In this document: positions 1-19,440 of the stretch, piece by piece
Layout of the letters: each line of letters begins with the position of its first letter
Numbering within the stretch: the first letter of the stretch is position 1
From: an uncultured delta proteobacterium
GTDB lineage: Bacteria; Desulfobacterota; Syntrophobacteria; Syntrophobacterales; Syntrophobacteraceae
Assembly: GCA_963808625.1 (NCBI GenBank)
Contig: CAWEHK010000018.1
Span: 1 to 64,000, forward strand
DNA length: 64,000 nucleotides
Direction of reading: 5' to 3'
The notes under the pieces: model-generated
What the model was told of the DNA's origin: nothing
Seen by the model: the letters and a program-made list of their open reading frames with translations, nothing else
Databases searched by the model: none
Made by a program: the position numbers and the translations under genes

Positions 1-3000
1 GAGGATGGGTGGCTCGTCCTTCGCAAACGTTGCCGGTTTCGGCGCTTCCGCATCGAGCCAGCGTAGGAGGTTCGTATAGCTCGGTGTGATGGTGTGGTGG
101 CATTCATCCACGACGACTAAAACCAGGTTTCCGGGGCCTACACCAGCCCATGGGTTCCCATTCGGCTGTCTAAGCGTCTGGATGGACGCCACGACGACCA
201 CAGGCTTGTCCGTGTCTTGGATGGCCGGATTCGGGTTCCCGCCCCACAGGCGAATGATTCGCAAGCTGGTGTTCTGCGCACCAAGATTGATCCAGACTTG
301 GCGAAAGGCCTGCACAGCCTGCCTCGCAAAGCTCGTCCGTCTGGGCCACCCACAGGACGCTACGCCGGTCACCGTTGGGGGCGAGGACGAGTCGCACAGC
401 ACCCTCCACTGTGACGCGCGTCTTTCCGGCGCCGGTGGGCAGGCTTACGACCGCGCGGTCGGCGCGAGGTGCCACTGGCCAGCAAACCCCGGATTCCTTC
501 GAACACCTCTTCCTGAAAATCATGCAGCGGTCGGGAGTTCAATGGGGCCGCTGATCAACTCCTCTTTGGTTCTCGTTGCGCTTCGGGAGATGCGGCGAAA
601 AGCTCCAGGAAAGTCGATGGCCGCGACGAAGGAGCGCGCCTCGGCAGTGTTCCATCGGGTCTGCGGCTTCAATCCCTCCTCTGAAAGCGTTTCTTTGAGA
701 GCCGTGAGGATGGCAGGGCCAAGTTGCGCGCGAGCGTCAGTTCTGCGAGTTCAAGCGGTGTGCATTTCTGCATGAAATCCATGCTCGCGAGGTTGCCGAG
801 CGCCTGGCGTAGCGGCTCCTCGCGGTTTCCCACAGCCAGAAGCAATCGTTCCACCAGTGTCGAGGCTTCCGCGACCTTCGCGCGCAAGGCATCCACCTGC
901 GCGTCCCCGACGACGGCCCAGCAGCTTCTCCAGGCTCGCATTTCAGCCATCCTGCCGCCGCAAATTCAGCGAGCAGACACTGGAGCCTGTCGGCACGCGA
1001 CAACGAAGCCTGCCGCGCCAGATCGAGAAGCAAGGAGTTATTCCACATCAGGCAGGGCACAAGGTCGCTGTCCCCGCCCATGATCAGCTTCAGGCGGGTA
1101 ATCGACTCGACATCTCGCAGGATAAATTGCCTGCCGTTCCGCAAGACCTCGGCAAGTTCGGGATCGTCTCGTAAACCAGGAGATCGGTCGGACCTGTATT
1201 CTTCAGCCGATGCTGGCGACATGAGCTCCGCAAGGTTCTTCGCTCCGCTCTGAGACCATAGCTTCCAGCGCGTGCTCGTCCAGCGTTACAACAATGCCGG
1301 ACCTAAGTAAGCTCACGTCGAGCGAGGTCCGGTGAGCCGGTCACGAAAACCTGCGCCAACGGAATCTCGCCCGCCTCCGTACGCAGTATTTGGGGAGCAA
1401 CATCATCTTTCGCCGCGCCCGCCCAAAGCTCGCGCAAAGAATCGTCTGCAAGGGCCTGGTGGAATAGCCAGCGCCTCATTAGCGCCAGCCACAAGGCTTC
1501 GAATGTCGGCTTCTGTGGCAGGTACTGGCGGTATTACGCCTCCCAGTTCTCGGAGCGCGGGCTGTAGCTCCTCCCAATTTGGCATCCTCGCCAGCGCCGA
1601 TCACCACTTGGCAACAACTGCCGCCAAGCGGACATTCTCGTCGCCGGCCTGCACAGTGCCATGTTTGAGTAAGAACCACGGCAGCGGATGTCTTCTATCT
1701 CCGGATAGCTGGCGACTGTGCAATGACGGGGCTTTAGCTTCTGCTTCATTTGGCCAATTGGGAAAGGAACTGCTCGGTAAGCTTGCCATTTGGAATGCCG
1801 CTCAACTTTGGCAGGAAGGCCCAGCCTTTAGGACATTTGAGGCCCGATGGTTTCAAGTAGCCCCAAAATGCCCTCCCGTTCACGTTCTGCTGGCAATAGT
1901 CCGCCAATGCGTTAGCCATTCCCTTCTTAATCCGTCGTGCCCGCCGACATCGACCACTCCATCCGGGAAATCGCAAATGCTCAGAGGCCGCCAGCAAGGC
2001 GCCGTCCCCGCCATGAATCCCAAAATCAACCAGGGTATTCTGGTTTGCAGAGGCATCGTCATAATCTGACGAACGCGCCGGGGGATAGAACCTCGTCCCC
2101 CAATACCATCCTGTAAACGCGCCTGCGTACACAGATCCGATAGGAATTCTGTGTGATGAACTGTTGGCGGACGGCAGAGGGTGCCGCGCGCAATCTCATC
2201 CAAAAAGCCTGCCATCCAGCATTTTTGGCTTCCGCTGAATAATTCGGGATACTACTCAGGGCCTCGCGAAGCACCGACTCCCACACGCTGTCGTCGAGTG
2301 GCTTCACTTTCATCACTTCAGCGAGAATCCGCCTCGTCTCCGCATCCTCGCACAGGGGCCGTGCAACCGGATGTCGGCCATCGGGAACGTGGGTGCCTTC
2401 GGGCGCGAATACCGACTGATCTGCGGTTAGCAATTGACCATCATCTGCCGGGATGATTTGGAGCAGTCAGGCGAACCGAACTCCACTCCCCCAGCCTGCA
2501 ATCTCTCTCGTAGGCTTCGGCGAGCTTGAGCACCTGGACCGCCTTCGCCAATTCACCGGGAGCGATGGCCGAAAACCACGAAGTCGCTTCACGTCTCCGA
2601 AGGTTCGGGCACACAGGTTGTTTCTTACCTTGCTTGCTGAGCCGTTCCGCAAGTGCATTCAAGCGGCTCCCACGTTGCCGCTCCAGGCATGAAGGATGAA
2701 CCATCTGCGCCCGTTCGTCACCACCTGCGAGCTCCCGCCACTGACGGGCGAGGTCGGTGTTTTCCAGCGGATGCTGCCACAACTCTCTAGCCGGCCGTAG
2801 CATGGTTGTCGCATCCGGAATCACCGCGGCACTTTCAAGTGCGGTCCACAGCGCCTCAACAAGGGGTGCTGCATCTTCATCCTTGCGTCCAAGTTGGCGA
2901 GGAAAGGCATCCAGCACGCGGGCTGGATCTGCATTCGTGCACAACTGCGGTAGTGTTTCTCCAATGAGACGCGCAGCTTCGAGCATCAGCTCGGTATTCC

Positions 3001-3991
3001 ACTCACCACCAATGATCGCGTTGCGGTCGCTGTTCAGCTTCCACGGCGCGTTCAGAATGCCCGGTAAATAGGTCGGCGTATGCGTCGGGAAAAAAGCCCA
3101 GAAGCATCCGGCCTCCTCCCGCTTACCCTCCAGCGGGATCGCCCAGGCCAGGGGCACAGAATCCCGCGCGTGGATATGTGTCGCATCGGCAACCGCGCGA
3201 GCGACGTCAATGGTGACGTCTCGTTTAGCGACACGCCAGCGTGACGTTTCAGTTCCGTCGTGCAGCAGACAATCGTTGCCATCCGGCTCGATCCTGAGCT
3301 CGCGCGATGATTTTTGTCCGTCATCGAGAAGCAAGGTGGTTGACACAGGAAAAAAGAGCAAGAACTCGGCTGGGAAGGCCCGGATTTCCTCCCCCAGATG
3401 ATCGAGAATCTCGCGCGTCTGAACTTTGACACGAACGATTGTCTCGGCCCACGTCAGTTGACCGAGAACGATGTCGTGACACAGTTCGCTCTCCTCCAAA
3501 GGCCACGCCAATCGCAGAGCGGGTGCTTCAGTTACATTAAACTCCCGTCTCAGGTCGTCACGGCACCGAGCAGGGTCGAACCGGATGGCCCCTGATCCCC
3601 TCATAAAGATGTCGATGGGTCCGCCGAGCCGAAGCAGCGATTTGAAACCCAGCCCAAACCGCCCGATCTGGTTACCTCGTTTGGGTGACGAATGAGAGCT
3701 GAGCAAAGCGTCTACGCCCTCTTCGCTCAATGGGGCACCGGTGTTGGCCACGTAAAGGCGTGACTCCCGAAGAAAGACATGAATCCGATTGCCGTCGACG
3801 GGCGGCACCCCATGCTCGTCGGCTTCGAGAATCGCATCCGCGCCGTTCTGTATGAGCTCCATGACCTGGCGATAGCCGTAACCCCCAGCCAGCACCGTCT
3901 GCTCGATTCCGTGGTGCTCCTTGAGCAAGCTGGGGAGGTTGCGATACGCGTCTCGCAGTGCGGCATTGCGGCTTTCTATGAATGACCTCAT
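1..3991 (-). CDS. Large sacsin-like GHKL ATPase + SF2 (DECH-box) helicase fusion; several frameshifts; runs off the window start
   Basis: ORF 2441..3991 has GHKL motifs ELIQNGADA, ANTGAPL, IGRFGLGFKS. Downstream minus-strand fragments continue in shifted frames to Walker A LPTGAGKT (~420-445), SVLWVAQTDELCE, and LVVVDECHH (~95-120). Confidence 0.8.
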
Positions 3992-4826: not shown

Positions 4827-4835
4827 GCTGACACC

Positions 4836-4935
4836 TCAGTGGTGTCCTCGTAGTTCACATCATGGGTATTGCCATTAATTAATGAACCTAAACGTAATCC
4901 GACCTCTTCCTGGAAACCTTTACTGCCGACTTCTC
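4836..4935 (-). pseudogene. higB: C-terminal remnant of HigB (RelE/ParE-like) toxin
   Basis: Minus strand, across frameshifts, reads AVKVS..RITFRF..NGNTHDVNYED.H-stop immediately upstream of higA; 5' part absent. Confidence 0.7.
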
Positions 4936-4939
4936 TTTC

Positions 4940-5865
4940 ATCGCGGACTTTCATGGTGGGCCGCTCGATGACGGCGCTCGCCTTCTTCAGCTCAGCGACA
5001 TAGCATCGGCCACGGCGTCGATGTCAGCATCCGATGCTTCGATCTCCTTAAAGAGGCGCTTGCGCATGATGGCGTAAAGCTCATCCTTGGTGTTGTCCAC
5101 CGGCGCAATAGTCTGAGCACCTTTGGAGACCTCATTGTTGACGCTCTGCATGGTGCCGCTCAGCAGCTCATTCGATTTGAGGATGCGGGCCAGTTCTTCC
5201 GCCCCCTGCTCCCAGTCCTTCTGGAGATCGGCGATGACGATCACGGAGCGTCGGCATTCTTTGTAGTCCCGCACAGCGCCAAAGAGCGTGGTGAGGGCAA
5301 TACTGGCGAGAGTGGCGGCCCGTGTCCCTTCTTCCTTGCTGCCCTGGCTGGCGGCGTGCACGAGATAAAAGGCCAGCTCGTCCAGAAGAATGAGAACGGA
5401 ACGGTCGCAGAGGGCATCGCGCCATTCTTCTTCAGACGGCGCACGATCGGAAGGGAAGTCCACACCGAGCACTTCGCTCAGGCTGACCCACACTTTTTTG
5501 TCCGTAGCACGACCGGTGAAAGAAGCCACCACATCGGGGGTGGCTTTGGGGAGCGGTTTCTGAAAGGGAAGCAGCGCAGCGAGATGGGGAAAGCGGGCGA
5601 GAATCCCGGCAACAATCATGCTCTGGGTTTTGCCGCCCCCCATGGACTCCGATAGTTTGTAAATGCCGCTCGCCGAGCCAACGCCGGCCAGGCGTGAGAA
5701 GGCCTGCATAAGGAGCAGTTCCATCCCCGACGTGAGCACATTGGAGTCAAGAAACTCGCGTGCTTCTTCTTCTGAAAGCTTGGGGAGATCGGCAAGATTG
5801 ACGACAAAATCAGCTGTCCCGTCAAGAACCGCCTGCCGTGGTTTGCAGGCTTGGAGTGTTTTCAT
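4940..5865 (-). pseudogene. Truncated DUF499-family AAA+-like ATPase (N-terminal ~300 aa)
   Basis: MKTLQACKPRQAVLD, Walker A MGGGKT, Walker B LILLDEL, ELYAIMRKRLF. After a frameshift near 5002 it reads YVAELKKASAVIERPTMKVRDE and then breaks off. Confidence 0.75.
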
Positions 5866-6034: not shown

Positions 6035-6065
6035 TTGACAGAGGAAAGGGAATAAAGGTAAGAAT
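6035..6065 (+). promoter_or_regulatory. Possible sigma70 promoter for the 6122-8689 operon
   Basis: TTGACA at 6035-6040 with TAAGAAT 18 nt downstream. Confidence 0.35.
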
Positions 6066-6121
6066 ACCAAACTACTCGCAAAGACCCTTTCAATATCATG
6101 CTTAGATGAGGATTCCGGCCT

Positions 6122-6934
6122 ATGCCTGTGATCGAACCTTCAGAATGCCTTACCGCCTTGCTCATTGGGCTTCATTATGCCAGATCGCGTTTCACCATTG
6201 GCAATTTCTTCAATGAGATCCTTGATTCAGTTGCAGAGCTCCCCAGCTTTCAGCCTCGCTCAGTGGGTCCTCATGAGCTTGTCTTTCGAATTGGAGGCAT
6301 AAAGGTAACGCTGACGCCGGAAGCCTTCGTCATCAATAGCCAGGTGACTGTCGGAAAAGACTTGCTTGCGTGCCTGCCTAAAAGGGACGAGAAATACATC
6401 ATGTTGCCGGCCTCGGTTTATGATGGAAGGTTCGAAATCCAAAAAGGGATCGAGGTGCTTAAGGAGAATCCGAAAACCTTTCGAAGGAACTTTGTCGAGG
6501 AAGGTATTGAAATCATACGGCTGGTGGATAAGATTGTCCAAGGAGGGCTCTATCCCCTCCGATTTATCGGGTTGGTGGAGTATTATGCTGTCCCCCTGGA
6601 TACTGTCAGCTGGGACATCTTGGACAAATTCACGAAGGAGGCTGATATTCCTGGCGGTTCAAATACTGAGAAGATAGCGCTTAATCGGTACTATTTCCCA
6701 GCAAGTCAGGAAGAGGACAAACGATGCTTAATCTTCAAACTTGTGAAGCCGGATGATCTTAAAGGCAAGGAAGCTGCTATCGGCGGAGCCAGTTTCGATT
6801 TCCAGTTTATACCGGAGAAACCTAAGGCAATCGCTGAATTTGGTGGACCCAAGGAGATGGTCACCTCACTTGCCATCGGCATTCAGAAGATGGTCGAGTA
6901 TTCAAAGTTTATGAACTTTACGCCCAGGAAATAA
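6122..6934 (+). CDS. Hypothetical protein, possibly TIGR04255-like
   Basis: 270-aa intact ORF; LRFIGLVEYY and SFDFQF segments resemble that family; first of three tightly coupled genes. Confidence 0.7.
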   Translation: MPVIEPSECLTALLIGLHYARSRFTIGNFFNEILDSVAELPSFQPRSVGPHELVFRIGGIKVTLTPEAFVINSQVTVGKDLLACLPKRDEKYIMLPASVYDGRFEIQKGIEVLKENPKTFRRNFVEEGIEIIRLVDKIVQGGLYPLRFIGLVEYYAVPLDTVSWDILDKFTKEADIPGGSNTEKIALNRYYFPASQEEDKRCLIFKLVKPDDLKGKEAAIGGASFDFQFIPEKPKAIAEFGGPKEMVTSLAIGIQKMVEYSKFMNFTPRK

Positions 6935-6936
6935 TA

Positions 6937-7527
6937 ATGAGCTCCCTGATAACACAGGATCAAATTATCACTCAAGACCAGGCAAAGGAGCGCACCACAA
7001 CGGACGACGCCATGCCTCTTGTGAGTACTGCAACCGGTCAGGTGGATGAAAAGACGAAACAAGGATTGTTTGATTGGCGTAAGGCAGTATCAATGGCCAT
7101 GGTTGCTGGGTCTTTGGGAGTTTCTTCGACACCCGCACTGGCCGAGGATCGCGCTTTTGTCCCCATCATAATGGAACAGACTGGCGCTTTTACCTCATCG
7201 GTCGCACACGCGCTCTCTGAGATTGCGGACCGCTACGAGAGTGTAATTTTTAGCTACCCTGCCAGGGTTTTGGAGATTGAGCGGAACGTCTCTGGAGATC
7301 CGATATCCGCGATTGTGCTCGTTTCGGTGGATGGGAATGATACCGTCATCAAGCGCTCTGTTCGGCAGTTTGGTTTTGAGCTCAGGCCAGACATGCGACT
7401 CATGGTTGATGGTGTACAAAGAGGCGGTGCGAAGCACCTTGCTTTTCGTGTAGCTCAGCCTCTGCAACTCGACGAGGAGCAGCAAGAATTGCTCAGGGGC
7501 ATCGTATCTGCATTCAAGACCGCTTGA
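6937..7527 (+). CDS. Hypothetical protein (low-complexity N-terminus, beta-rich possibly OB-like C-terminus)
   Basis: 196-aa intact ORF starting 2 nt after the upstream stop. Confidence 0.7.
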   Translation: MSSLITQDQIITQDQAKERTTTDDAMPLVSTATGQVDEKTKQGLFDWRKAVSMAMVAGSLGVSSTPALAEDRAFVPIIMEQTGAFTSSVAHALSEIADRYESVIFSYPARVLEIERNVSGDPISAIVLVSVDGNDTVIKRSVRQFGFELRPDMRLMVDGVQRGGAKHLAFRVAQPLQLDEEQQELLRGIVSAFKTA

Positions 7528-7528
7528 G

Positions 7529-8689
7529 ATGTTTAGAATCCACGTGCTCAACGTTAAGCTCGGGGATTCCTTAATCCTGGAAACTGAGCTCAATTCAAAA
7601 TCCTACTATTCCATCATTGACTGCAAGAGTATCGAAGGCAAGACCCCTACTGTTGAGTTCCTCCAGGAACGAGGCGTAACCCAGGTTCAGAGTGTTTTCC
7701 TGACCCACCTGCACAGCGATCATTACTCCGGCTTTCCCCGGCTGTGGGACTACCTTAGGGAAGTCAACGGTACACTCGAATATTTCGTATCGCCTCAAAT
7801 TCCAGACGAATATGACGTTTGGCGGAAAATTCTCGAGTTGGCGCATGACCAGACTACCAGCGTACAACTCATCAGCGTTTTAAAGGCGATGAGAGGTTTT
7901 CTGCAGCTGCCTTCTTTGACTCATGAACGCAAAAAGGCAATGCCCGTGCGGATGAATTACGAAGGGGGCCGAGATGAACGCTCTTGGCGTGAGCACCTGC
8001 ACCCGGCTCTGCTCTTTGCTGCGCTGAGTCCGTCTGATACTGAGGCTTTCCAGCTTCTTCGCTCGGCATTCGATGATGCTGCTCGTTACCACAAGGCAAT
8101 CAATGCCATCAGTCACGCTTTCCTGGTCAGGCATGAGGTAGGCTCCCATCGACATACGGGACTGTTTTGCGGTGATTTGGAGGGGCAAACCTGGAGGTAT
8201 GTAAAGAACCGGTGCCTGGAGATAACCAAACGCGCCATAAGATCTGAGCTCAGCTTTCTGAAAGTCCCTCACCATGGCGCTTCCAACCATGTTATGGAAC
8301 AATGCCTCCAAGAGCTGATCGACGACAAAAATCATTTTATGGCTTCCATAAGCTGTCCCCCGGGAGATCCGAAGCATCCAGCCCAGCGGACATTGGAGTC
8401 ACTGCGAACTGCCTTTGAGGATTGCTGTATAGCGTGCACAAACATCTCTGCACTCTGCCACAATCGAGGGTTTCCCTCCATCGCATATGAATTCTTTGAG
8501 CAGCCTCCCAAGGAAGCTGAATTTCTGGAAGTTGCCTCGTCTGAACAGTTTGGTGCCATCCATCCACGTGTGCCGGGTGCTTGTGCCGGCCATCACACGA
8601 TTACCATGACGGAAAACGATTGTACATTGACACGATCAACGGGGTTACCGTGCAGTTTCAACCCATCTGACTGCCGCAAGGAGCATTAA
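7529..8689 (+). CDS. ComEC/Rec2-like metallo-beta-lactamase fold hydrolase (putative nuclease), stand-alone
   Basis: VLNVKLGDS, IIDC, LTHLHSDHYSG (HxHxDH), FCGDLE, KVPHHGA, ISC..KHP; Cys-rich tail; no membrane competence domain. Confidence 0.85.
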   Translation: MFRIHVLNVKLGDSLILETELNSKSYYSIIDCKSIEGKTPTVEFLQERGVTQVQSVFLTHLHSDHYSGFPRLWDYLREVNGTLEYFVSPQIPDEYDVWRKILELAHDQTTSVQLISVLKAMRGFLQLPSLTHERKKAMPVRMNYEGGRDERSWREHLHPALLFAALSPSDTEAFQLLRSAFDDAARYHKAINAISHAFLVRHEVGSHRHTGLFCGDLEGQTWRYVKNRCLEITKRAIRSELSFLKVPHHGASNHVMEQCLQELIDDKNHFMASISCPPGDPKHPAQRTLESLRTAFEDCCIACTNISALCHNRGFPSIAYEFFEQPPKEAEFLEVASSEQFGAIHPRVPGACAGHHTITMTENDCTLTRSTGLPCSFNPSDCRKEH

Positions 8690-12384: not shown

Positions 12385-14027
12385 TCATGATTCAGAATTC
12401 GTCAATGATAGGAAGTACAGTGCTCGCAAGCCCCGGGAGATAAGTTTCAACGGATTTGCATGACGACCCTGCAAGCCTTCCAGCCGGCCAATCACATGGG
12501 GAGTCCGTTCCGCAACATCCGAAGCCAGCAGACCTCGGCTGGCCACGCCACCGCATGCAACAATCCGCCGCCGCACCATGAATGTAAACACCCAAACAGG
12601 CCGCTTCGAAAGGTTCATAACCCCTGCCCCAGAAAACCCGCGATCATTCCGGTCAGCACATCTCCCATGCCGCCACTGGCCATGGCCGGGTTCCCGGAAC
12701 TGTTGATGGCTAATCTTCCATCCGGAGCCGCAATCACCGTCCGATGCCCCTTCAGGACCAGGGTTACCCCATGCTCCCGGCTGAATTGCGCGGCGACCTC
12801 GAGCCGATTCTCCTGCACTTCCCGATTTGAACCATGGATGAGCCGAGCCATTTCGCCGGGATGCGGCGTCAGAATCACGGGTGAGGAAGCCTTCTGAAGC
12901 AATTCGAGATGGTCCGTCAGGGCCGTGAGCGCATCGGCATCCAGGACCATCGGACATGGAGCTTGACGCAGCAGGGCCCGCACCAGTTCCTGAGTTTCCG
13001 GGTGCAGCGAGACGCCCGGCCCCATCGCCAGGGCCTGCTTTCCCTCCAGGAACTCCAGGATCTCTGGGAGCGCCGCCAGGCCTGGGGTTTGCTCCGCAGT
13101 CTCGGCGATAGGATAGGTCATGGCTTCTGTCAGTTTGACTTCCAGGATGGGATTCAGACTGCCGGGAATGAAGAGCGTCACCAGTCCTGCGCCAACCCGC
13201 CCTGCCCCCAGGCAGATGAGCGTTGCCGCCCCGGTCTTTCCGACGGAGCCTGAAAGCACGGCCACGTGGCCGGCGGTGCCCTTATGGCTCTCGGCAGGTC
13301 GCGGCTGCAACCACCCGGAGGCAAGCTCTTCATCCAGCCAAAAGCGCCTGATACCGTTTGCTTCGGCAAGGCCACGGCGGAATCCCGATATCGACCACGT
13401 GGAGCTTCCCCACATAATCTTCACCGGGGGTGACCACATGACCCACTTTGAGAAACCCGAAAGTGGCCGTGGCCTGCGCCCGAACGGCTGCTCCAAGGGG
13501 TTTTCCGGTGCTGGCATCAAGCCCCGACGGGACATCCACCGCGAGCACTGGCACGGTAAGCGTATTCAGGGCTTCGATGACTGCTCGATAAAGCCCCTGC
13601 ACTTCACTTTTCAAGCCGGTTCCCAGGATGGCATCAATGACCGCATCACTTTGCGCAATCCATTCGCCATTGACTGCTGAAATCCTTCCCTTCATCCCAC
13701 ACGACCACCGGGACACGCAGTTTTTCCAGAATGCGAAAATTGGTGAGGGCATCTCCCTGAAGCCGATCAGGAGAGCGCAGGCATACCACGCGCACCGCAG
13801 CACCCTGGTTATGAAAGATCCTCGCGAGAACAAACCCATCTCCCGGCGTTATTTCCGGCCCCGGCGACGACGGCAATGCGGCGTTCCAAAAGATCGGGAA
13901 ACTCTCGAAGGAAGAAATCCGCTGCTCCCCGCGCCGCATTCTCCATGAGCACGATACCGGGGATGCCGATTTCTTCAATGGTTTGTCGGTCAAGCCGGGC
14001 CATTTCCGAAGCGGTCAGGATGAACAT
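12385..14027 (-). CDS. nnr: Bifunctional NAD(P)H-hydrate epimerase/dehydratase, frameshifted; 3' end approximate
   Basis: [72 protein letters not shown]. Confidence 0.92.
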
Positions 14028-14200
14028 GGCTTCCTCACGATCGTGAGAGTAAGATACAGAATAGTTCTCAATGAGCCCTAGCGCCTGTTTGAAACCCCCC
14101 AAAGCCACTGCGACCTCCAATCCTCCATCGCCCATCCCCATCCAAAATCCGAACATGTCACACGAAATCCGAAATCCGCCATCCGACACCCGCATCCGTT

Positions 14201-14584
14201 TCAAGTTTCCAAAATCACCACGGCCGCGCCATATTCGCCGTCGTCCGTCAGACTCAAATGCCAGGATCGAATCCCAAGATTATTGCAGAACTCGAGAGCG
14301 CGCGCGAGAAAGGGCAATCTCGGGTTTTCCGAGGTCATCGTTTTGCACCTCGATGTCACTCCAGAGGATGGGTGAACGCATGCCCCTTCCCAGGGCTTTG
14401 ACAAAAGCTTCTTTGGCCGCAAAGCGCATGGCCAGGCACGCGACCTGCTTCCTTCTGCCCGGCGCAGGCCGCCAGTTCCGCGGACGTGAAGACACGCCGG
14501 GTAAAACGTTCTCCCCAACGGGTCATGGCCTCGCCCAGCCGACCGACTCCGGACCAGGTCAATGCCTATTCCGTAAACGGCCAT
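14201..14584 (-). CDS. acpS: Holo-[acyl-carrier-protein] synthase, frameshifted
   Basis: [39 protein letters not shown]. Confidence 0.92.
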
Positions 14585-14585
14585 T

Positions 14586-15302
14586 TCAACCGTTCACCAG
14601 CGCAATCATTTCCCGCACCGCCCGCTCCATCCCAACCAGGACCGCGCGGGCAATGATGGCATGGCCGATACTGAATTCTTCGATTTCAGCAATCTTTCTG
14701 AGCCAGAGCACGTTGCGATAATCCACTCCGTGGCCCGCATGCACGCCCAATCCCAGTTTGCGGGAGAGTTTCGCGGCCGTCAGGACCCGCTCAAATTCCT
14801 CCTGACGTTCTGCAAACGTAGCGGCATCCGCAAAGGTTCCCGTGTGAATTTCCACGTAGTCCGCTTCCAGCCGGTGAGCAGTCTTGATCTGGTCGGGATC
14901 GGCATTGATGAAGAGACTCACCGCGATATTGCCGTCATGGAGGATCTTGATGGCGCCTTTGAGAGACTCCTCAAAGAGCACCACATCCAGGCCGCCTTCC
15001 GTCGTCAATTCCTGGCGTTTTTCCGGAACCAGGGTCACGACATCGGGTTTGATGCCGAGGGCGATTTTGACCATCTCTTCGGTTGCGGCCATTTCCAGGT
15101 TGAGTTTCGTCTTCACCGTCCGGCGCAACACCTCCACATCCCGATCCTGGATATGGCGACGATCTTCCCGGAGATGCACCACGATCCCCTGGGCCCCCGC
15201 AAGTTCCGCCAGGGCTGCCGCAGTAACGGGGTCCGGCTCAATTACCTTGCGGGCCTGCCTTACAGTAGCCACATGATCGACATTGATCGCCACTCGAGCC
15301 AC
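14586..15302 (-). CDS. pdxJ: Pyridoxine 5'-phosphate synthase
   Basis: NVDHVATVRQAR, HLREDRRHIQ, LVPEKRQELTTEGGL, IEIHTG-like YVEIHTG, IGHAIIARA. Confidence 0.97.
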   Translation of the reverse strand: MARVAINVDHVATVRQARKVIEPDPVTAAALAELAGAQGIVVHLREDRRHIQDRDVEVLRRTVKTKLNLEMAATEEMVKIALGIKPDVVTLVPEKRQELTTEGGLDVVLFEESLKGAIKILHDGNIAVSLFINADPDQIKTAHRLEADYVEIHTGTFADAATFAERQEEFERVLTAAKLSRKLGLGVHAGHGVDYRNVLWLRKIAEIEEFSIGHAIIARAVLVGMERAVREMIALVNG

Positions 15303-15324
15303 TTCTTCTCCTTTTGATAGCCCG

Positions 15325-15560
15325 GAGTAAGGAGTAGGCAGAAGCAGTAGGGAGCAAAAGCAGCGCAGTCGAGGCTATCTTGGCGATAACGCAGCCGGCA
15401 TGAGCGGCAGCCTCTCGCCCGACACTCATTTCACGCTATGCCCTCGTCCCCACCCCTCCTCACTGCCTGCTCCCTGCCTATCTAGTCTTACTCCTACTCC
15501 TACTCTACTCCTACTCCCTACTCCTTACTCATTACTCCTTACTCCTACTCATCACTCATC
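15325..15560. repeat. Degenerate short tandem repeats (CTACTC/CTCCTA) with a complementary GAGTAG-type tract upstream
   Basis: ~15485-15555 ctcctactcctactctactcctactccc...; 15325-15355 gagtaaggagtaggcagaagcagtaggga. Confidence 0.7.
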
Positions 15561-16052
15561 ACTTTTCGCCAAATACCACTCGAAGCCTTCCCGAGAATGC
15601 CCGAGCATCCCCAGAAGTTCCAGGGTCTTTTCGTCCATCCGGCAGGCTTCTTCCTCACTGCGCTCATGATCATAGCCGACCAGGTGCAGGATCCCATGCA
15701 CGAGCAGCAGGTCCATGACCATGGCCAGCGAGCACTGGTGATGGCGGCTCATGCCCCGAGCCGTAGGAGCAGAGATCACCACATCACCAAGAAGCTCGGG
15801 GAAGACATCGCCGCATTCGCCTTCGAGCATGGGAAAGGCAAGCACATCGGTGCTCGCGTTCACCTGCCGATACTGCATGTTGAAGCGCATCATTTCCTCA
15901 TCATCCACAATGAGGATGCTTAGCTCCGTATCAGTGAATCCCAAGCCGTTTAAGATCTCCGCGGCTGCTTTCTTGATGCGCCGCCGGCTTATCCCGATCC
16001 GGCCTGGGTTCACGCTGAGCCGAATCACCGGCATCTGCTTTGCTCTTTCCAT
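15552..16052 (-). CDS. ybeY: rRNA maturation endoribonuclease YbeY (start uncertain)
   Basis: [26 protein letters not shown]. Confidence 0.93.
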
Positions 16053-18414
16053 TGGGGGAGACGTTCGGATATTCAATCCTGCGGTGATGCACCGTGGCCA
16101 AAATCTGGTTGAAATGCTTGGCAATATGATGAAGGTCCTTGAGGGTGAGTTCACACTGCCCCAGTTGGCCGTCACTGAAGACATTATTGATCAACCGATT
16201 GATCATCCCCTGGATTCTTGCCGGAGTCGGGTCGTTGAGCGAGCGGCAGGCCGCCTCGACCACATCTGCCAGCATCACCAGGCCGGCTTCCTTGGTCTGG
16301 GGTTTGGGGCCGGGATAACGATAATCGTCAACGTCGATGGGAGGCAATTCAGAGCCCTTCGAGGTGCGGGTCTTCTGGCGAGCCTCCTGGGCTTTCATGT
16401 AAAAGAAGGAAATGAGACTCGTGCCGTGGTGCTGACTGATAATATCGATGATGGTTTTGCCCAGGCGGTGCTGTTTGGCCAGTTCGACTCCCTCTTTGAC
16501 ATGGGCGATGAGAATCAGACTACTCATCGAAGGGGCCAGCTTTTGATGGCGATTTTCACAGTCCAATTGGTTTTCGATGAAATACACCGGTTTCTTGATC
16601 TTGCCGATATCATGATAATAGGCGGCGACCTTGGCCAGCAGTGAATTGGCGCCGATGGACTTGGCCGCCGTCTCCACCATGTTGCCGACGATGATGCTGT
16701 GGTGGTAGGTCCCCGGCGCCTGCATCATCAATTCCTGAAGCAGGGGTTGATCCATGGTGACCAACTCAAGCAGTTTAATGTCGGTCGTGTAGCCGAATAC
16801 CATTTCCACCAGGGGGGTGAACCCCGTAACCAGAATGCCGGCCATGACCCCGCCAAAAAAGCCGAAAAAGACATTGGTCACCACGTGAAAAAACGCCCAC
16901 TGGTCTTGCAGCAGCGTACCCAGCACAATCAGCGCGGCATTGCTGCAGCCAACCAGCAGGCCGGCCTTGATCGGGACGATGCGGTTCCGGCAGGGACAGA
17001 CCCCGTGAGCGGCAACGAACGACCCAATCAGGAAATAGAGAAAAAGGCCAAGGTCCTTGCCGAAGAGGAACCCGGAAAAGAGGCAGAGGAGCAAAGAAAA
17101 GGTCAGCGACAGCGGAATCCCAAAGAAGATACACGCAATCATCCCCCCTGCGCTCAGGGGGCTGGCATAAATAAGGGTTTTCCCCGAGAGGCTGGTGGCA
17201 GCGCTCCCGATGCTTTCTCCAACCCACATGTTGAAGCTGCCAATGCCAAGCATAAGGATGAGCACGATGCCCAAAAATAGAAAATCCTTGCTCTCCATTC
17301 GCTGGGAAGGAAAATGCTGGACGGCGACATGGGCAAACACCCAGATGCACAGACCGCTGAGCAGAAACAGCGTAGCGAAGACGAGGAAACGATGGCCGTA
17401 AGACTTCCCCTGCTCCTGGCCTCGCAACTTGAGCAGTTCCTCCGGCCCGATGCGCTGTCCCTCGCGGACCAGCATTTCATTTCTCATGACCTGAAGGTAA
17501 ACCGGTTTGACCGAGGCGTAAGCCTCTTTTCGGCGCTGCTCCGTTTCCTGCAGATTGAATAGCAGGTTGGGCTGCAAGAACTGGGAAGTCAAGAAGACGA
17601 TGGCGATGATTTCGCCGGGATCTCCTCGATCCTCCAGGGCATGAACCTTCATCAGCTTACGAGCTTCCTCCAGGTCCTGAAAGGCGTGCGGAGGCGTCGA
17701 CAGAAATTCCTCCCGGGAGGGCACTTTGCGGACCAGGAGATTTTCTCCCTGGGCCTCCGGAAGCCTTGATTTGTCGGAGACAACCCCCTCTCCAAGGGCC
17801 CCTTTCAGCAGTTGCGTGATGCGGTCCTGGAGATGCTTACTGAATTGTTTTTCATGGAGAACGGAAAACACTGGGTCAGAAACCTGGAAACCCAGGAGGG
17901 CTTCGAATTCCTTTTTCTTCCGGGAGAGTTGCTCTGTGGGAGCACTTGCTTCGGGAAATCCTTGCTGCGGATAGCCCGGAGAGGAGGACACGGCCTGTCG
18001 CCCCTCTTGATTTGCAGAGTTTTGAGGGTGGTCGTCAGGCATGTCTTGCCGCATCGCCTGAAAGGCTGCCTCCAGTCTTTCCTGGATACGCTGCGCAACG
18101 GTCTCGTCCAGATCGTAGACCACCGCGGCCTGCCTCACTGCTTCTTCGCGCTTCTTCGCGGTGGCCTCCCGGTCTTCAATGAGGAAATCCCGTTTCGCCT
18201 TGATATTCTGATCGGCAATATCACCCAGTTGATAGAACGGGGTTTCCATGACAAAAGAGGGAGTGAGGAGGAGGGAGACGGCGAGACTGAATCCGGCCAG
18301 GATAAGGAGCTTTTGCACGGTGGTCTGGCGGAGAGCTGCCGGGATGCGGCTCTTGCCGTGCGCGGCTTTTGCCTTGTTCTTTGGTTTTTCGGGTTCTCGT
18401 TTCTCCTTATCCAT
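15931..18414 (-). CDS. 7TM-HD (HDIG) phosphohydrolase, PgpH-like
   Basis: Extracellular domain, several TM helices, [40 protein letters not shown]; phoH-7TMHD-ybeY synteny. Confidence 0.92.
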
Positions 18415-18419
18415 ACGCG

Positions 18420-19440
18420 CTAATTCTCTGTGACCGGACTGGTGGTCCGCGACTTGCGCTCTTCTGCACGTTCGTAGGCCAGAATGATTTCCTGCACGAG
18501 CCGGTGCCTCACGACATCACGGTTGGTGAAATAGACAAAACGAATATCGCGAATCCCTTTGAGCAACTGGATTGCTTCCACAAGCCCCGAGGTCTTGTTT
18601 TCGGGAAGATCAATCTGAGTAATATCGCCGGTAATCACCGCCTTCGAGCCCAGACCAAGCCGGGTGAGAAACATCTTCATCTGCTCGCTGGTGGTGTTTT
18701 GGGCCTCATCCAAAATGACAAACGAATCATTGAGTGTGCGGCCGCGCATAAAGGCCAGCGGGGCCACTTCAATGGCGCCGCGCTGGAGCAGACCGGAAGC
18801 CTTTTCGTAATCCATCATATCGTGGAGGGCATCATAAAGAGGGCGCAGGTAAGGGTTGACCTTCTCGGCCAGATCGCCCGGCAGGAACCCCAGTTTCTCA
18901 CCGGCTTCGACCGCCGGGACGCACCAGCACGATGCGGCGCACCTGCTCCTTGGTCATGGCGGCAACCGCCATCGCCATGGCAAGGTACGTCTTGCCGGTG
19001 CCCGCCGGACCAATCCCAAACACGACGTCGAAGTGGCGGATGGCCTCGATATATTCCTTCTGCCTGACACTTTTCGGGGAGATGGTCCTTTTGTTGGAGG
19101 CAATGAAGACGTGATCGAGGAAAATATCTTTCAAGCTGCGTTGAAGGTTCTCGCTGAGGATGCGGATGGCGTATACAATGTCACTGTCATAGACCGGATA
19201 TCCCTTTTGAATCAGCTCAGCAAGCTCTTTTAGCAGGCGTTCGGCCAGTTCCACGTGGGGCTCATCCCCGGCAATGCTAAACTGGTTTCCCCGCAGATGA
19301 ATCCGCACGTCCAGCTGTTTTTCAATGATTTTGAGATGGCTGTTCCGTTCTCCTGCAAGCTGTTGAACCAACTGGTTCTCTTCAAAAGAGAGCTGCGCTG
19401 CGGCTCCTTCGAGTTTGTCTCGTACGGGTAATTGGGTCAA
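18420..19440 (-). CDS. phoH: PhoH-family ATPase (frameshift ~18915)
   Basis: [45 protein letters not shown]. Confidence 0.95.

Follow-up and report, generated by a model that had tools for sequence, protein, structure and literature searches.

What does a tightly coupled trio of genes, ending in a stand-alone metallo-β-lactamase (MBL) hydrolase, do in an uncultured delta proteobacterium of the Syntrophobacteraceae? The trio lies in the first 64,000 nucleotides of contig CAWEHK010000018.1 (assembly GCA_963808625.1), a 64-kb stretch referred to here as the window, and an initial annotation had proposed it as an undescribed anti-phage system. We find that it is a real, conserved, rare and sporadically spread three-gene module. 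That the trio is anti-phage at all seems probable; the leading specific reading, a toxin–antitoxin (TA)-like anti-phage complex whose MBL is gated by gene 2, with gene 1 in control, is about as likely as not. The three open reading frames (ORFs) share one strand and are separated by 2 nt (genes 1 and 2) and 1 nt (genes 2 and 3), a layout that stands as first described:

6122–6934, + strand: gene 1, 270 amino acids; predicted alpha/beta protein with two sheet-and-helix halves; putative sensor or chaperone
6937–7527, + strand: gene 2, 196 amino acids; putative adaptor or antitoxin, flanked by genes 1 and 3 in 13 of 13 loci
7529–8689, + strand: gene 3, 386 amino acids; stand-alone ComEC-type MBL metallo-hydrolase, predicted nuclease effector

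A rare, conserved three-gene module

Homologues of gene 1 were collected by a word search (19 matches) and a full profile search (20 matches, two of them short repeats), and a search for gene 3 homologues gave 29 matches. Scans with the gene 1 alignment led to 13 loci, ten from metagenomes and three from genomes, and in every one of these fetched loci genes 2 and 3 lie directly behind gene 1 in the same order. Merging near-identical copies (L001/L002, L003–L005 and L009/L010) leaves nine distinct cassettes, so that the co-occurrence elsewhere that the initial annotation had set as a check is found wherever gene 1 was fetched. Gene 3 is split in L008, retains its 3′ third alone in L012 and is truncated by the contig end in L005 and L009. 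At the DNA level the window matches L001/L002 over 6107–8674, the three genes only, and L001 and L002 themselves carry one shared cassette (98.8% over 3.7 kb) with differing downstream genes. Ratios of nonsynonymous to synonymous substitution (dN/dS) against the L002 and L011 cassettes are 0.07–0.13 for each gene, the comparison with L003 being saturated, and all three genes are therefore under purifying selection. The G+C content at the trio (0.47–0.51) is below that of most of the window.

Across 400 other genomes of the phylum gene 1 had no match, and it is therefore not a core gene. No relative of gene 1 was found in viral contigs, and phages and plasmids gave no full-length match to gene 3. 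Two stray 3′ fragments of gene 3 were seen, one elsewhere in this genome (G000:C54:69032–69214; 108 bp, 90% identity) and one by a type I restriction–modification (RM) specificity gene (L002:17498–17773); these are traces of earlier cassette insertions or deletions. Three regions under weak gene 3 matches (L024–L026) proved to be other MBL contexts and were ruled out.

Gene 3 is a ComEC-type metallo-hydrolase with a cysteine tail

The MBL metal site of gene 3 is intact. The protein scores above the PF00753 cut-off and carries the motifs THLHSDH (residues 59–65), GD (215–216), KVPHHG (245–250) and HP (283–284); D31, H60, H62, D64, H65, N192, D216, H248 and H249 are invariant in its alignment, and H283 is kept in 25 of 26 rows. 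The membrane competence domain of ComEC is absent from this 386-residue protein, in which the MBL begins at the start, and the TIGR00361 model scores 10 bits against a cut-off of 190. Metal motifs, cysteine-rich tail and missing membrane domain are thus all as the initial annotation had read them. The closest solved sequence is a competence protein (E 3.5e-4), and the models for two defence MBLs, Avs1a and 6A-MBL, score 14 bits (cut-off 420) and 20 bits (cut-off 220). A scan against PADLOC, suggested at the outset as a check, gave a partial match of gene 3 to the LmuA MBL (E 2.7e-10, residues 1–72) and nothing for genes 1 and 2. The tail is as follows:

8435–8653, + strand: gene 3 cysteine tail, with four invariant cysteines, C303, C310, C352 and C375

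Among the rows reaching each column, C303 and C310 are present in 26 of 26, and C352 and C375 in 25 of 25, a pattern that likely marks a structural zinc site.

Gene 2 combines a fast-evolving arm with an OB-like domain

Gene 2 has no match in Pfam, NCBIfam or PADLOC, and the Atlas gave nothing usable for it. Its predicted structure, confidently folded over about residues 89–195, bears out the earlier description of a disordered N terminus followed by a beta-rich domain:

6937–7191, + strand: residues 1–85, predicted disordered, fast-evolving arm, with a predicted local distance difference test score (pLDDT) below 50
7237–7461, + strand: residues 101–175, OB-like beta barrel (from fold matches)
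7462–7524, + strand: residues 176–196, conserved acidic C-terminal helix, the predicted main MBL anchor

Identity to homologues is 9–51% over residues 1–85 and 32–77% over residues 86–196, and L178 and E181 of the acidic helix are invariant in ten of ten homologues. Top fold matches of the folded part are mostly of OB type, cold-shock domains included; EF-P aligns with Z 7.3 (root-mean-square deviation (rmsd) 2.3, 59 residues aligned) and the Chs5 N terminus with Z 6.0 (rmsd 2.0, 52 aligned). An OB-domain link to the Ambrosia system finds no basis in the available part of its preprint, where AbrC has a winged HTH. Within the arm, a moderately hydrophobic stretch lies near residues 51–69, and residues 47–70 (7075–7146) by eye resemble a signal peptide, with basic residues, a hydrophobic core and small residues. 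A 19-residue window with hydropathy of at least 1.0 occurs in eight of ten gene 2 homologues, in nine of 27 second genes of the TIGR04255 operons and in none of 15 DS-42B proteins, two groups of proteins described below.

Gene 1 is a putative sensor or chaperone

The window protein of gene 1 matches nothing in Pfam, NCBIfam or PADLOC, and its 22-member alignment likewise matched nothing in the last two. The best of five fold models has a pLDDT of 81, the other four 52–58, and the two-half fold appears in that one of the five. Its best fold match is the McsB kinase domain (Z 7.3, rmsd 3.9, 171 residues aligned, 5% identity), nothing reaching Z 8 or above. Foldseek against the PDB gave only TBP/AdoMetDC-type matches of low template-modelling (TM) score, and the top match in a viral library is an unnamed 202-residue protein (TM 0.46/0.59). 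SecB is absent from the 50 fold matches listed for gene 1, a result that does not exclude a SecB-like fold. The annotation's reading of gene 1 as TIGR04255-like was not upheld. The TIGR04255 model, with its 30-bit cut-off, is matched neither by gene 1 nor by 21 relatives, and by nothing else in this genome (G000); the profiles do run in register over about 130 columns (E 0.07–0.11), a score equalled by six of 40 shuffled decoys. What is left is an Atlas neighbour at 0.89 that points to TIGR04255, as a lead only. We regard gene 1 as a putative sensor or chaperone.

Gene 2 is predicted to bridge gene 1 and the MBL

In a three-chain prediction, gene 2 forms a bridge from gene 1 to the active-site rim of the MBL, with a score of 0.80 (0.79, 0.81 and 0.80), the runs sharing at least 60% of contacts and the partners having pLDDT of at least 62. 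Replacing gene 2 with either of two unrelated partners reduced the score to 0.00, and replacing the MBL gave 0.44, the best of the controls, which we read as residual binding of gene 1 to gene 2 in the model. The lowest-error contacts place the gene 2 helix of residues 176–190 on MBL helices 95–125. Other MBL contacts fall at residues 10–11, 33–37, 63–64, 67, 277–282 and 326–345, of which 63–64 belong to a metal motif and 277–282 are next to H283. Toward gene 1, gene 2 residue 96 contacts residue 134 of gene 1, whose helix 123–138 touches gene 2; gene 2 residues 70–78 and 87–101 lie in the interface, and in our reading of the model all of them face gene 1. A multimer model of the trio had been proposed at the outset, with gene 2 as a possible adaptor, and this controlled prediction favors such bridging.

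A trio of the same layout has been tested against phage

DS-42 (working name PRO1) is a system from E. coli prophages reported by DeWeirdt et al. (Science 2026, PMC13092281), where the name occurs in the available supplements and is absent from the available main text. According to those supplements it consists of genes for 238, 190 and 363 amino acids with the MBL last, and its protection is recorded in a single row, marked as replicated: plating of phage Bas1 is down 1.1 log and plaques are smaller (PMC13092281). DS-42 copies sit in prophage accessory slots (L015–L023), the copy in L016 being fetched from viral contigs. Five DS-42-type trios also occur in the phylum of the window (L068–L072, in G318, G050, G338, G369 and G138), all three genes matching the DS-42 profiles.

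A second relevant group comprises operons headed by TIGR04255 (NCBIfam sporadTIGR04255), present in 42 of 401 genomes of the phylum. At the best 30 loci (L038–L067) the first gene is usually followed by a short protein (80–210 amino acids, 27 measured) and then a third gene. Scanning 27 third genes identified toxin families in nine (five PIN, two PemK, one HEPN and one weak HicA), DUF7689 in five and nothing in 13. The DS-42A profile scores against TIGR04255 above all 40 decoys, and one DS-42A relative is named TIGR04255 in UniRef. At three further loci (L073–L075), behind weak DS-42A-profile matches (E 6e-8 to 0.004), the place of the MBL is taken by gene pairs that by eye look like those following some TIGR04255 genes, which suggests that DS-42A and TIGR04255 form one superfamily. 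A literature search that covered few subscription papers found no paper under TIGR04255 or DUF7689 and, bioRxiv supplements lying outside its scope, nothing on a trio of the present kind, including as a tripartite TA system with a guanido-kinase or McsB-like member.

Genomic neighborhood

To the left of the trio, on the opposite strand, lie a DUF499 fragment, higA, a small Mrr_N-like ORF that scores below the cut-off and a sacsin-type GHKL gene; a DUF4258/DUF2283 pair lies to the right. The initial annotation had named most of these neighbors correctly, its higB being the part that did not stand: no Pfam match exists for it on this contig, and a 3′ remnant at most is visible by eye near 4832–4890. 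The DUF499 fragment covers positions 5–282 of a 1,025-position model and has no other piece on this contig; a longer, frameshifted DUF499 gene is on contig C49, with further pieces on C31. Over 4832–5865, DUF499 breaks off after some 290 codons; the apparent last codons of higB begin no more than about 100 bases further on, and an intact higA comes next, an apparent deletion. The long sacsin-type GHKL gene (1–3991, − strand), whose first ORF matches PADLOC TmtA at E 2.6e-45, apparently extends across several frameshifted ORFs to reach helicase-like sequence where the window begins.

Defense or TA genes adjoin many of the homologous cassettes, in a scan of 55 flanking proteins from nine loci that did not include the flanks of L005, L009 and L010. 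BREX BrxL and PglZ and a RelE pair lie near L001; Septu PtuAB, type I RM, HNH and several TA genes near L002; SoFic near L003; a DarG-like gene near L011; and a type III restriction endonuclease near L012. L007 is followed directly by an SNF2 helicase and has MNT-HEPN upstream, L013 has MNT-HEPN 2.6 kb off amid housekeeping genes, and the flank of L004 holds a helicase/regulator fragment with no defense match. The flanks thus fit defense islands, and the setting that the initial annotation had asked of homologues, defense rather than housekeeping, is seen at many of them. The L013 record is labeled as an archaeal metagenome-assembled genome; its cassette adjoins a penicillin-binding protein with transglycosylase and transpeptidase domains, and the contig may be bacterial.

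Two further arguments for the locus fell away. The intactness of the trio beside broken neighbors had been taken as a sign of selection. Housekeeping genes of the same window, acpS (the sole match in the genome), phoH and nnrE (12615–19440), are split or truncated too, and intactness therefore carries no weight; these breaks point to assembly indel errors, and broken genes of this genome, which is 84.6% complete, should not be taken as decay. A possible promoter at 6035 is a perfect −35 box lacking a good −10 box:

6035–6040, + strand: isolated TTGACA, found by sight; absent from the promoter-scan list; promoter not supported

The promoter scan of the region returned five sites against 3.1 expected by chance, 6035 not among them. 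A search of sequencing runs by the words of the region found none containing half of the words and listed no RNA run.

How the trio might work

In the leading mechanism, which we hold to be about as likely as not, the acidic helix and OB-like domain of gene 2 would bind the insert of the MBL and the rim of its active site, and gene 2 residues 70–101 would dock on gene 1. This docking would restrain the gene 3 metallo-enzyme, a predicted nuclease whose substrate would be DNA. Gene 1 could control gene 2 as a chaperone or sensor for its disordered arm, by analogy with SecB in toxin–antitoxin–chaperone (TAC) systems. A phage-derived trigger would then free the enzyme, and infection would stop.

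Several points weigh against this mechanism. First, although in calibration 116 of 157 solved pairs attained the score mark against two of 215 mismatched pairs, the present job, of three chains with shallow alignments of 22, 28 and 10 rows, is unlike that calibration. Second, interface residues are no more conserved than the rest (0.37 versus 0.48 for gene 1; 0.56 versus 0.64 for gene 3), and the model therefore lacks independent conservation support. Third, the hydrophobic part of the arm (46–69) makes no confident contact, and the model is neutral on whether gene 2 binding blocks or assists catalysis. Fourth, L006 and L008 have no defense neighbors and L013 is mostly in housekeeping company; the neighbor tallies are raw counts with no background rate, and hence yield no enrichment figure. 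Finally, the protection conferred by DS-42 itself is weak, and genes 1 and 2 show no significant profile similarity to DS-42A, DS-42B or TIGR04255: gene 1 against DS-42A gives E 0.055–0.27 (two of 40 shuffled decoys as high), gene 2 against DS-42B gives E 0.06–0.4 (four of 60), and gene 1 against TIGR04255 fared no better, as described above. Attempts to bridge these profiles failed even with enlarged alignments and a distant trio, L105.

The alternative that survives best, although we hold it to be rather unlikely, keeps the modeled contacts and reverses their sign: the OB-like domain of gene 2 would load substrate, and the trimer would be a directly acting nuclease on foreign nucleic acid with no antitoxin step. 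Several gene 2 fold matches are nucleic-acid-binding OB domains, the domain is modeled at the active-site rim, and in ComEC an OB domain is paired with the MBL. The OB region of gene 2 is nearly neutral, however (10 K/R versus 8 D/E), and a long, fast-evolving disordered arm, in a gene placed between those for a regulator and a toxin-type protein, fits the antitoxins of TIGR04255 trios.

It is quite unlikely that the trio is instead a TA-like addiction or stress module that stabilizes mobile DNA and offers no real phage protection. Plain TA pairs are frequent neighbors, the distribution is sporadic, and the broken gene 3 copies in L008 and L012, with the stray 3′ fragments in this genome and L002, would suit such a module; yet several homologues adjoin BREX, Septu and RM genes, and DS-42, of the same layout, protects against phage (supplements of PMC13092281) and sits in prophage accessory slots.

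MBL folds act on many substrates, and the matches of gene 3 to characterized nucleases are weak (the best solved one being the competence protein above), so that a phosphodiesterase or other hydrolase, acting for example on a signaling nucleotide in a regulatory or metabolic accessory unit, might be considered, with the kinase/ligase-type sheet of the best gene 1 fold match in its favor, but the gene 3 motifs follow the ComEC-type subgroup, that fold match falls below Z 8 at 5% identity and no metabolic gene recurs beside the trio, making this reading improbable.

Comparison with known systems

The claim that the system is undescribed stands in part: a same-layout trio, DS-42, was validated in 2026, and the present locus is at most a putative DS-42 member. 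Both comprise three coupled genes, two uncharacterized ones and then an MBL, of 238, 190 and 363 amino acids in DS-42 and 270, 196 and 386 here. Gene 3 is homologous to DS-42C (HHalign 98%, E 2.4e-13, 272 columns, 20% identity), in a profile match that is partly generic to ComEC-type MBLs. In each, the middle gene joins a variable N-terminal part to a small beta domain, and gene 2 and DS-42B both point to a Chs5-N/OB-like fold, since CHS5_N is an HHpred match of DS-42B at 78% in the supplements (PMC13092281) and Chs5 is also among the gene 2 fold matches. By contrast, the four-cysteine tail of gene 3 lies outside the DS-42C alignment, which stops at residue 307; a quick tree built from 43 MBL domains puts gene 3 outside the DS-42C clade (clade supports 98 and 100, union 59); and the present clade, unlike DS-42, was not found in viral contigs. 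The trio thus shares the layout of DS-42 and is probably a separate lineage, extending a known but unexplained kind of system rather than founding a categorically new one.

A possible bridge between the gene 3 clade and others comes from the one further distant full-length relative that the gene 3 profile found in 250 phylum genomes (L105:5022–7421, G032:C5), a 368-residue MBL with a cysteine tail behind genes of 260 and 165 amino acids. This MBL matches the gene 3 family at E 2e-23 and DS-42C at 6e-7; the first and second genes have no significant match to genes 1 and 2, and plasmids gave no match for the first gene, nor for P0066. The L105 trio adjoins RelB/YafQ, an MqsA-like gene and an ATPase.

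TIGR04255 operons share the plan of a first gene of about 250 amino acids, a short protein with a variable N terminus and often a toxin-family gene. They differ in that gene 1 misses the TIGR04255 model and none of the 27 third genes scanned matches an MBL family. Tentatively, and with more doubt than conviction, one could extend the comparison to a single unrecognized superfamily, comprising gene 1, DS-42A and TIGR04255, of non-SecB immune regulators that head regulator–antitoxin–toxin trios with freely swapped toxins (PIN, PemK, HEPN, HicA, DUF7689 or MBL); here, an OB adaptor would cap an MBL nuclease in trans, protease-free, the regulator retaining the adaptor until its displacement by a phage protein. 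If so, DS-42 would gain a mechanism, as would a family found in roughly one tenth of the sampled phylum genomes. The trio, working as modeled, would also point to TIGR04255-like proteins as a common, undescribed third component of TA operons. If the trio is merely a distant cousin of DS-42, it adds modestly to a system first published in 2026.

Among mechanisms for units of three genes that include a disordered antitoxin, the closest by analogy is that of the TAC systems HigBAC and CmdTAC, which likewise have three genes, a disordered, fast-evolving middle protein and a third protein, in our case by prediction, that binds it (available part of bioRxiv 10.1101/2024.02.24.581848). As set out there, TAC operons place a TA pair before the chaperone and the disordered element at the antitoxin's C terminus, whereas in the present trio the putative regulator leads and the arm lies at the N terminus. 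The TAC chaperone is SecB-like in that source; for gene 1, with 270 amino acids, two sheet–helix halves and no Pfam match, fold searches favor other sheets, none at Z 8 or above, and the toxin here would be an MBL.

The defense MBLs studied so far are described, in the available parts of two reports, as latent Zn-dependent double-stranded DNA nucleases whose active site is blocked until activation, with protease cleavage as the gate (bioRxiv 10.1101/2025.11.14.688446; PMC12799240). Like Avs1a, HamM and CanC in those reports, the trio has, as its predicted effector, a ComEC-like MBL that carries insertions when compared with ComEC, in defense settings. Unlike them, it has no protease seen in or beside it, none of trypsin, caspase or subtilisin type being present among the window neighbors or the 55 scanned flanking proteins, and a bound protein, rather than cleavage, would exert control. 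The model offers residue-level hypotheses, pairing gene 2 residues 176–190 with MBL residues 95–125 and gene 2 residues 70–101 with gene 1 residues 123–138, that could also be applied to DS-42, validated and so far unexplained. If the trio works as modeled, it would represent a second route to gating an MBL nuclease, in which a dedicated regulator and the bound adaptor beneath it replace the partner protease.

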